Positions 6,001-9,000 of a DNA stretch of 10,136 nt are shown here, piece after piece. Made by a program: the position numbers. The stretch is taken from the IMG/VR virus record IMGVR_UViG_2693429733_000021; one strand, 5' to 3'. How positions within the stretch are numbered: the first letter of the stretch is position 1; each line of letters opens with the position of its first letter. This stretch comes from a virus. Its lineage: Duplodnaviria > Heunggongvirae > Uroviricota > Caudoviricetes.

Positions 6001-9000
6001 CCCGCAACTGCACTGAGCCTCTTTCAGTGCCTGGCCGTTCGCCAGCTGGGTACGGACACCGTCACTGAAGGTGGCGATTAAAGCGTCGTTCTCATGGCTG
6101 ATCTCCGGGACGTTGCCATTTTCCAGTTCCTTAAGACTGCGCTTAACAAAACCGGCATTGCTTAACGCCGTCAGGGCCTGCGGTGTCAGTTCTAATAATT
6201 CCGGACGTAGTGAATTCATGACTGAAGATTCTCCGCAAGCCATGATGCCAGCTCGCCCGGCGTCATGGCGGCTATTTGTGCGCCGACATTAACCAGCGCC
6301 TGGGCCGTATCGCGGTCATAGCAAGGTGTTGCGGTGCTATCGAGCGCAGCCAGTCCCAGCACTTTGATGCCGCTCTGGACACACTTTTTCACCTGATGCG
6401 TCAGCAATGATGATGAACCCCCTTCGTAAAAATCGCTCACGAGGATAATGACGCTTTTTGCTGGTTGTTCAATAAGTTGCCGACCATACTCCACGGCACT
6501 GGCGATATTGGTCCCGCCGCCCAACTGTACTTTCATTAATAACTCTACCGGATCGGCAACGTCTGCCGTGAGATCAACCACGCTTGTGTCAAACGCCACC
6601 AGATGGGTACGAATGCCGGGTAACTGCCACAAACAGGCCGCCATCACCGCAGAGTGGATCACCGAGTCCACCATCGATCCGCTTTGATCAACCAGTAAGA
6701 CCAGTTGCCATTGTTCGCTTTGGCGTTTAATGCGGCTGTTAAAGCGGGGGGATTCGATATACAACTTGCCGTGTTGCGGGTGCCAGTGTTGCAGGTTAGC
6801 GCGCAGAGTACTTTTGACATGGAAGTTGCATGTTTAAAATTGCATTAATTATCAATCTGTTAAGATGGGCAGGTCATTATTAGTCAAAATAAAATCATTT
6901 GTCGATTTCAATTTTGTCCCATTCCCGTCCACGGCTGTCCCTATACCGCGCCGCCATTGAATCTGATTTATGTCCGAGAAGACGTTGAGCAAATTTATCG
7001 CCAATCTGGTTCCGGTATAGCCTCGCTGACAGGCTACGCAGTTCATGGAATGTTGGCGGGTCTCCATCAAATGAGAGTCCGGAGGCATTTCTCGCCTTTG
7101 TAAAATACTTTGATACTGTTTTCGGGGAAAGCGGATCGTGATGCTTTGATGCGATTATAGTTTCACTGCTGCTGGCTTCCCTGCATTTCTGTAGTGTATC
7201 AACCAGTGAGATATTGAGCGCGTCAATCGTTAGCGTCAGCGGAATGGCGAGCTTAGCCCCTGTTTTACCCTGCTCAATGTGAAGATGGTTGTCGTTTATG
7301 TCTGACCACTTCATTCTGCATAAATCGCCCACTCTCTGCCCTGTAATGACGGCCAAATCCATTGCCAGCCTCAGCCAGATAGGGAGAGGTTCGGCTGCAT
7401 GGTAAATCTCGACATACTCATTAGCTGTCAGCCTTGAGCGCCTTACTTCTGACTTTGCTGTGCGGGTTGCTGTTACCGGATTCGTAGCCACATGCCCCTC
7501 GGCTATTGCTTCACGAAAAACGTCAACAAGGGTTGACCTGATTAATTTTGCGGAAGCCGCTTTACCTTCTGCTACGTAGGTATTTAGCATTGCTGCCACC
7601 TCTTTCGTTGATATGTCAGTGAGCGGTTTGTCCGGCAATTTTCTTCGAATTGCCCTGATTTTGCTGGCGTAGTCGAGTAGAGTTTTCGGTCTGATGCCCC
7701 TCTCGCTGAGGATTGTTTCATATCGGTCAAGCCATGCATGAAGGGTGATTGAGTCAGCGCCTTTAATCCTGTCTATCAGTGACTCGCGCCCGCTGTCTGA
7801 TAGCAACTCAATGTTGGCCTGTATTGCTTCAGTGATTGCTATCCTCCTGTCTCGGCCTAATCCGAACTCTTTACCCGTCCTTGGGTCCCTGTAGCAGTAA
7901 TATCCATTGTTTCTTATATAAAGGTTAGGGGGTAAATCCCGGCGCTCATGACTTCGCCTTCTTCCCATTTCTGATCCTCTTCAAAAGGCTACCTGTTACT
8001 GGTCGATTTAAGTCAACCTTTACCGCTGATTCGTGGAACAGATACTCTCTTCCATCCTTAACCGGAGGAGGGAATATCCTGCACTCGCGTACCCATCGAC
8101 GAACTGTTTCAAGGCTCCTTGGGCGTCGCTGGCGTGCGTTCCACTCCTGAAGTGTCAAGTACATCGCAAAGTCTCCGCAATTACTCGCAAGGGAGCGAGT
8201 ATTGGTTTATTTTCTCCAACAAAAAAGGAGCCGAAGCTCCTTTGATGATTAAAATTCGAATTGTCTCGCCCGAAGGCTTTTCAGCATTGGTTTTGCCCGT
8301 TCGAAAAGGGCGCTTGCTTGGTCAAGTCGTGTCGCCTCCCTTAGCAGTACATCTCTGTTTTTCGTCACCGTGTAAAAAGTTTCAAACGCGATGTCATACA
8401 GCTTGCTCGTGTATGATGAGTTCAGTTCCTTCAATATCGGGTACAGACGTTTGCAGATGTCCTGCGCATTCTCCATCTGTACCTGCATATAGCAAAGGAG
8501 GATGATTTCTTCGTCTGTGAATTGCTGCGCTGGTTGCATGCTGCGAAGTTTCTTTTCGCATTCGATGAAGTATCGGCGTATCTGGCGGCCTTTTTCGTTG
8601 CGCTCCACCATAGCCAGTTCTTTGGCTGTGTCGAGGGTGAGGTGGTAGTCTTTGCTACGGCGATCGCCTCCACGTCCTTTGATCCCCCTGTTTTGGTGAA
8701 CCAAAATGTAATCGACATCAACGGCAAAGCCGTATTCTGTTATGCGATTTTTAATCCATGTAGAGAAGTCACGACGTACTTCCAAAAATTCGTGTAAATC
8801 ACGGGCATTAACGAGAAGAGTTGTTTCGTTGGATATAGTGCCGTTGAATACGGGGATGAGTTGACTGGTCATGATGACCTCCTTTGAAGTTTTAGTTAGC
8901 AATCACCAGTTAGTGGCTGGTGATCGGGTGTCAACTAGAGCCTTCAAAGACGCTCCGGGCATATTCCCCTTGCGGGTATTGTATTACGCCTCTCCACCCG

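Follow-up and report, generated by a model that had tools for sequence, protein, structure and literature searches.

Probable insertion of an HK022-family prophage into a secondary attachment site in yehP

A viral record of the Caudoviricetes (IMG/VR record IMGVR_UViG_2693429733_000021; 10,136 nucleotides, the whole of which is called the window here) contains the integrase (int) and excisionase (xis) genes of a lambdoid phage directly beside a truncated copy of the host gene yehP, which raises the question of how the phage came to lie there. A preliminary description of the sequence had seen in the integrase (Int) a mosaic of lambda-like ends and a diverged centre, and had taken the latter as the sign of a specificity switch associated with yehP. 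The present analysis leads to another answer: very probably, Int inserted the phage into a secondary attachment (att) site and thereby disrupted yehP, the cognate target of the phage being yfaT, and no switch of specificity was involved. The part of the window that matters most here, positions 6808-8164, is highly likely to be the int-proximal end (attL, int and xis) of a lambdoid prophage with a recombination module of the HK022 family. The window as a whole is 100% identical to contig CXDM01000144.1 (L010) of assembly GCA_001253895.1.

The distribution of the Int protein bears most directly on the question. The exact 357-residue sequence was found on nine contigs in public assemblies. On four of them, all from draft assemblies (L006, L007, L009 and L011), it is encoded beside MagC/DUF1175 (yfaT)-yfaA-gyrA, on another four (L008, the window's own contig L010, L012 and L013) beside the yehP remnant, and the last contig ends at the junction. 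The phage DNA of L009 and L011 is 99.9% identical to window positions 6810-8798, with only two differences, one of which is the junction base 6814. Since one phage with one Int occupies both yfaT and yehP, a specificity switch at the protein level is excluded as the cause of the yehP insertion.

The two loci were also compared for occupancy, using a 140-nt probe across the yfaT-phage junction (to be covered to at least 80%) and equivalent probes for yehP on complete E. coli genomes (n = 5,426). The yfaT-phage junction was present in 177 genomes, the yehP-phage junction in none; the latter was encountered solely on four near-identical draft contigs. The P′-arm subtype of the window was represented in seven complete genomes, in all seven at yfaT. 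Over 6.8 kb of host DNA, contig L008 shows one single-nucleotide polymorphism relative to the window, and for L012 and L013 the difference is 0 or 1 nt; such a common host background of the yehP-type contigs, so far as they could be compared, is in keeping with a single rare event in one lineage. Prophages are on record as disrupting yfaT (PMC3603311), a gene also counted among the candidates for regulated gene integrity (PMC7192596). A literature search found no paper linking yehP to prophage integration, and the supplements of the TIGER paper mention neither yfaT nor yehP.

Two observations on individual contigs may be added here. L008 carries ∼60 substitutions in a dense patch at 8561-8792 (window numbering), inside the AntA/P22_AR_C gene, with flanks identical to the window; this could reflect recombination from another prophage or a mixed assembly of two prophage copies. 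Another contig (L014; Logan, ERR025722), with an identical int-xis region, ends at window position 6822, the boundary of overlap and C′, which may mark a branch of the assembly graph at which more than one left context adjoins the phage end in that sample (for example, two lysogenic sites or an excised form).

The att sites themselves were aligned on the 7-7-7 register of lambda (left arm, overlap, right arm). In this register, attL of the window reads GTACTTT-TGACATG-GAAGTTG (6808-6828), which bears out the earlier statement that the core differs from that of lambda (attP CAGCTTT-TTTATAC-TAAGTTG); it likewise differs from HK022 attP (ATCCTTT-AGGTGAA-TAAGTTG) and from the HK022 attB between torS and torT of K-12 (GCACTTT-AGGTGAA-AAAGGTT). 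Its left part is bacterial: the core-type B site GTACTTT (6808-6814, plus strand) comes from yehP, is identical to the intact gene, and matches the B arm of HK022 attB (GCACTTT) at six of seven positions. The 7-bp overlap TGACATG (6815-6821, plus strand), placed by alignment to the lambda and HK022 cores, is of phage type, as is the core-type C′ site GAAGTTG (6822-6828, plus strand), which aligns with C′ of lambda and HK022 (TAAGTTG); the match to phages of the HK022 group begins at 6823.

The same overlap is found at yfaT. Empty yfaT in K-12 (CAACTTA-TGACATG-GAAGGAC) contains ACTTATGACATGGAAG and thus matches the overlap of the window at 7/7 positions, and both junctions of yfaT prophages carry it as well (attL CAACTTA-TGACATG-GAAGTTG in several genomes; attR CTTCTTC-TGACATG-GAAGGAC in the enteroinvasive E. 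coli (EIEC) strain CFSAN029787). Taking the C arm CTTCTTC from attR of CFSAN029787, the attP core is reconstructed as CTTCTTC-TGACATG-GAAGTTG; the corresponding cognate attB, CAACTTA-TGACATG-GAAGGAC, lies close to the 3′ end of yfaT. The core that had been read as belonging to a new specificity is therefore, in its overlap and adjacent bases, essentially that of an attB elsewhere, in a gene already on record as a prophage target (PMC3603311, PMC7192596). When the reconstructed attP was compared with 50,697 phage records, only the HK022-type attP came up, at 84%, and none of the records contained this attP; neither a free-phage attP nor a further attL context was hit by exact-pattern scans of viral, metagenome and species-representative genome collections (0 matches).

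Intact yehP (GTACTTT-TGAAATC-AAAGTTT), in contrast, resembles the phage only in part. Its overlap agrees with that of the phage at 5/7 positions (positions 1-3 are identical, 4 and 7 mismatched), and each of its arms agrees with the authentic HK022 attB arms at 6/7. The site thus has inverted CTT-containing arms at the correct spacing and a partial overlap identity biased to the left. As described before, the junction is intragenic: it falls at codons 175-182 of 378 and splits yehP. Within attL, the change from bacterial to phage sequence takes place between 6814 (bacterial T) and 6818 (phage C), that is, at the boundary of B and overlap; the T at 6814 is bacterial, since the last base of the phage C arm is a C and that of the yfaT B arm an A. 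As a 5-Mb genome is expected to hold ∼0.5 sites this good, the location of the junction exactly on one is not due to chance. The two overlap mismatches are changes in first codon positions, so that native yehP encodes NFDFKS where the phage-type overlap would yield NFHVKS. All intact YehP variants retrieved encode NFDFKS, which shows the overlap heterology to be real and not a host polymorphism, and the notion that the native yehP of this lineage carried TGACATG was rejected for the same reason.

If the target does not follow from a change in Int, the nature of this protein remains to be accounted for. The intact open reading frame of int (6895-7968, minus strand) encodes a heterobivalent tyrosine integrase of 357 residues with 97% identity to HK022 Int. 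According to precomputed Pfam assignments for the exact protein (Arm-DNA-bind_1, Phage_int_M, Phage_int_SAM_1 and Phage_integrase; PF09003, PF22022/PF02899, PF00589), the N-terminal arm-binding, the core-binding and the catalytic domain are all present. The six catalytic residues established for lambda Int (in lambda numbering, R212, K235, H308, R311, H333 and the nucleophile Y342) are conserved without exception (6/6). The start of int is overlapped by 23 nt by xis (7946-8164, minus strand), which codes for an excisionase (Xis) of 72 residues with the Pfam domain Exc.

Overall identity to lambda Int is 75%, distributed unevenly. The first 55 residues are identical (55/55), Xis differs by a single residue (71/72; G59S), and the lambda-like character ascribed to both in the preliminary description was thus confirmed. 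The supposed three-part structure, with a diverged centre and a lambda-like catalytic segment, did not hold up: residues 64-169 (the core-binding domain) match lambda at 71% and residues 170-355 at 73% (31 and 51 differences, respectively). HK022 Int differs from lambda Int to much the same extent (33 and 51), so the divergence taken for a new switch equals the difference between HK022 and lambda that has long been known. At the DNA level, 50-nt bins reach at least 90% identity to lambda only in ∼7808-8157 (Int residues 1 to ∼55 and xis), compared with 52-80% for the rest of int. To judge from these comparisons, the mosaic is real, and it is that of HK022: arm-binding domain, Xis and arm sites are common to lambda, and everything else is diverged. 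What is shared with lambda therefore reflects the known relationship of HK022 and lambda and is not peculiar to this element.

Identity to HK022 Int is high in all domains. Int is identical at 345/357 positions (95% in residues 1-63, 97% in 64-169 and 97% in 170-355), int DNA at 86-100% in each 50-nt bin, and Xis at 72/72. The 12 changes from HK022 to the window are scattered (G58D, N59S, R60G, A73S, A117T, S137A, A187E, V208I, S234G, A256V, Q261K and N303D). The residues checked for specificity (D99, P282, K283, K287, R319 and R329) are all of the HK022 type; a role in specificity is reportedly played by positions 282, 283, 287 and 319. Five residues largely explain the difference in specificity between lambda and HK022 (PMC6007267), and N99D and H329R are documented as lambda/HK022 specificity changes (PMC10863862). 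That lambda Int had acted at a lambda secondary site was rejected, as Int is only 75% identical to lambda Int and carries D99. The int-xis DNA is 94-95% identical to that of HK022, mEp235, mEp506, H19J and several Stx1a phages, and ∼77% identical to that of lambda-type phages. The int-xis-att module is accordingly best classed as an HK022-family cassette. Of the earlier proposal of an HK022-type switch tied to yehP, the family assignment of Int thus stands (97%), and the switch does not, the same Int being found at yfaT.

At five Int positions (58, 117, 187, 208 and 256), both yfaT-type proteins (those of the window and of CFSAN029787) are unlike both torS-torT-type proteins (those of HK022 and of a Stx1a phage); the changes are G58D/E, A117T/N, A187E, V208I and A256V. 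These positions could be lineage markers, or they could tune core-arm recognition.

The P′ arm, too, follows HK022. Its three arm-type sites, P′1 (AGGTCATTAT; 6871-6880), P′2 (TAGTCAAAAT; 6881-6890) and P′3 (AAAATCATTT; 6891-6900), all on the plus strand, are identical to those of HK022 and each one base off those of lambda, and were thus rightly described as lambda-like; as in lambda, they overlap the int stop codon. Between C′ and P′1 lies a putative IHF site H′ (TATCAATCTGTTA; 6850-6862, plus strand), recognized by positional alignment with TATCAATTTGTTG of lambda; it fits the IHF consensus WATCAANNNNTTR and presumably functions as H′. Nowhere in the module is the resemblance to HK022 lower than in the interval 6829-6870, from C′ to P′1 (bin 6808-6857, 68% identity), and the H′-like sequence is nearer to that of lambda than to TATCAGTAAATTA of HK022, which points to additional mosaicism inside the P′ arm.

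How could such a module enter yehP? The features by which a pseudo-site was judged were taken from PMC2817482 and bioRxiv 10.1101/2023.11.06.565760. HK022 Int accepts any overlap, provided that the two partners carry the same one, and the sequence required in the arms shrinks to 5 bp (PMC7736782); each of the two arms has to contain CTT (bioRxiv 10.1101/2023.11.06.565760). Lambda secondary sites conserve the overlap's left side, and host processes are required to resolve junctions that heterology has stalled (PMC2817482). By analogy, Int would bind the P′ arm sites via its lambda-identical N-terminal domain and the core sites via its HK022-type core-binding and catalytic domains, and would swap strands across the 7-bp overlap. 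Together with IHF, it may have synapsed attP with the yehP pseudo-site GTACTTT-TGAAATC-AAAGTTT. The first (top-strand) exchange, at the left boundary with its 3 bp of homology, would then have led to a Holliday junction whose branch migration was presumably hindered by the heterology at positions 4 and 7, until replication, repair or host processing resolved the intermediate and left attL with an overlap of phage type. Should attR have retained the bacterial overlap, excision between attL and attR would meet the same heterology and may be inefficient.

It is conceivable, albeit improbable, that the yehP lysogen captures, in nature, how lambdoid phages begin to acquire a new attachment site. 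Insertion into a secondary site with a 2-bp overlap heterology would create hybrid att sites, and these could give rise to an excised phage whose attP is partly or wholly TGAAATC and which prefers yehP, and the yfaT-type core would perhaps have been derived in this way from an HK022-type ancestor, with Int nearly unchanged. A weaker variant of this idea is that the substitutions of yfaT-type Ints at positions 58, 117, 187, 208 and 256 relax core-arm recognition.

Several points weigh against insertion into a secondary site. The first is the lack of the reciprocal junction. At yehP, attR is predicted to consist of the P arm, the C site, the overlap and B′ (AAAGTTTCGCGCC...), followed by the rest of yehP, with the sequence ...TTTTGTCCTTCTTC-TGA[A/C]AT[C/G]-AAAGTTTCGCGCCAGTGG... 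and a P arm similar to that of lambda and HK022. When the predicted 199-residue fusion of YehP(1-∼177) and the P arm was compared with a collection of 5.8 billion proteins, only frameshift or deletion variants of YehP were obtained, none with a phage-encoded tail. Exact look-up of four overlap variants of the fusion likewise found none, nor was the predicted attR picked up when genome_contigs and metagenome_contigs were scanned with IUPAC patterns. Conservative reciprocal recombination is thus presumptive, as is the way in which the heterology was resolved. In addition, attP was reconstructed from the prophage ends of a 95.5%-identical relative (CFSAN029787) and not from this phage; the register of the 7-bp overlap was set by alignment to lambda and HK022, the cleavage positions being assumed by homology; and the prophage portion of the window amounts to ∼3.3 kb only.

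A possible reason for the use of a secondary site in this strain would be that yfaT was unavailable, for example because a related prophage already occupied it, as in the closest EIEC-type genomes, or because it was deleted. This extension of the secondary-site reading has a fair amount to recommend it but is, on the whole, doubtful. In classical lambda genetics, secondary sites are used mainly when attB is absent. The host DNA at window positions 45-800 is closest to CFSAN029787-type genomes (99.9%), in which yfaT holds a resident, ipaH-bearing prophage with a 96%-identical Int. The host DNA next to the yehP junction, however, is closest to that of another strain, 90-3040, so the relation to the CFSAN029787 type is mosaic.

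Far less likely is a junction formed without Int, be it by illegitimate or homologous recombination, by a deletion or an inversion between prophages, the genome being prone to rearrangement, or as an assembly chimera. The failure of protein, exact and pattern searches to recover attR at yehP would be in line with such an origin, as would the second prophage end that flanks the other side of the yeh segment (see below) and the Logan contig that ends right at the core. However, the breakpoint lies within 4 bp of the predicted top-strand exchange, in a CTT-N-(7 bp)-N-AAG site with 5/7 overlap identity of which ∼0.5 per genome are expected, and the phage side ends exactly at the att core, as it does in yfaT lysogens. 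An assembly chimera was rejected because the junction recurs in four separately assembled contigs (NCBI, Logan). Least credible of all is a new specificity variant, in which yehP would be the true primary attB, targeted as a result of substitutions in the part of Int that reads the core: the core is indeed unlike those of lambda and HK022, three of the 12 substitutions relative to HK022 lie in the core-binding domain (A73S, A117T and S137A), and yehP would be a new att site, no paper reporting it as such having been found, but retargeting is largely refuted by the identical Int at yfaT in other strains, and the attL overlap deviates from native yehP at 2/7 positions while equalling yfaT at 7/7, the junction counts among complete genomes are 0/5,426 for yehP and 177 for yfaT, every specificity position checked is of the HK022 type, and the yehP cases look clonal.

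Insertion of the phage by its own Int into a look-alike site in yehP is thus the reading retained here, and the remainder of the window provides its setting. To the left of the junction, the window contains a dinI-like gene (40-288, minus strand), yehU/btsS (788-2488), yehT/btsR (2470-3204) and yehS (3194-3721), these three on the plus strand, and yehR (3762-4235) and yehQ (4348-6243) on the minus strand. The 3′ remnant of yehP (minus strand), coding for part of a VWA-domain protein from about codon 183 to the stop, occupies 6216-6807; homology to the intact gene of 378 codons extends to 6827, and over 6216-6814 the remnant shows 0 mismatches to yehP of strain 90-3040. The 5′ half of yehP would lie beyond the prophage, outside the window. 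To the right of xis, two phage genes follow on the minus strand, one with AntA/P22_AR_C (8249-8902) and one with ORF6N (9203-9985).

At the other end of the window, positions 40-787 comprise the dinI-like gene and ∼500 nt of non-coding remnant on the promoter side of yehU/btsS, in the place normally taken by mlrA (yehV). In CFSAN029787, a lambdoid prophage that carries ipaHe ends in this sequence (99.9%), so the segment from yehU to the yehP remnant is sandwiched between two prophages. Host DNA of the window is 99.5% identical to that strain over 39-5365 but only 95.9% identical over 5356-6814 (the 5′ part of yehQ and the yehP remnant); the coordinates shift by 120 nt within yehQ, and the yehP remnant is identical to strain 90-3040 instead. 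A recombination boundary or an indel in yehQ is thereby suggested. The yfaT prophage of CFSAN029787 (int region 95.5% identical to the window in DNA, Int 96% in protein) carries on its attR side (L016, ∼11,500-13,900) the type III secretion system effector gene ipaHa and a transposase fragment beside attR. In EIEC- or Shigella-like backgrounds, virulence cargo can thus accompany an HK022-type int module at yfaT.

The module should accordingly be annotated as that of an HK022-family integrase with yfaT as cognate target, not as a lambda mosaic with specificity for yehP. It provides a natural example of something known of the lambda/HK022 family, a change in site choice by way of the 7-bp overlap (here also of the C arm), accompanied by only 12 scattered Int substitutions, none of them at the specificity positions checked. 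It further illustrates the likewise known point that such phages occasionally enter look-alike sites and thereby inactivate host genes, in this case yehP of the yehLMPQ cluster. What is new is the previously unreported secondary site in yehP, which adds modestly to the recorded prophage insertion sites and opens no new question.

How the module relates to known systems can be stated for four of them. With lambda, it shares Int residues 1-55, Xis (71/72), arm sites that are one base off each, and a 7-7-7 core with CTT/AAG arm motifs; it differs in the core-binding and catalytic domains (71-73%), in having D99 for N99 and HK022-type residues at the other positions checked, and in a core that departs from GCTTTTTTATACTAAGTTG of lambda in the overlap and both arms. 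With HK022, it has in common Int (97%), the catalytic residues, residues 99, 282, 283, 287, 319 and 329, Xis (100%), P′1-P′3, and the overlaps of int with xis and of the arm sites with the int stop; the P arm of the close relative CFSAN029787 is also highly similar to that of HK022. It is set apart from HK022 by the overlap (TGACATG vs AGGTGAA), the C arm (CTTCTTC vs ATCCTTT), C′ (GAAGTTG vs TAAGTTG), the 12 substitutions in Int and the attB, which lies between torS and torT for HK022 and, as cognate site, in yfaT here. The module is thus a member of the HK022 family with a different att target, outside the att specificity of HK022 itself. Secondary-site lysogeny has been described for lambda and for Int mutants of HK022 specificity (Shimada/Weisberg/Gottesman; Rutkai et al, 2003; cited in bioRxiv 10.1101/2023.11.06.565760 and PMC2817482). 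Those cases came from laboratory selection in attB-deleted hosts, whereas the present one is a natural isolate involving a yfaT-type relative of HK022, with the reciprocal junction not recovered; they agree with it in the imperfect pseudo-attB, the inverted CTT arms, the left-sided overlap identity with heterology to the right, the rare use and the disruption of a gene. The yfaT prophages, finally (E. coli O111:H- 11128, O121 and EIEC CFSAN029787), have the same att core and the same Int family, and differ from the phage of the window in that the latter sits in yehP.

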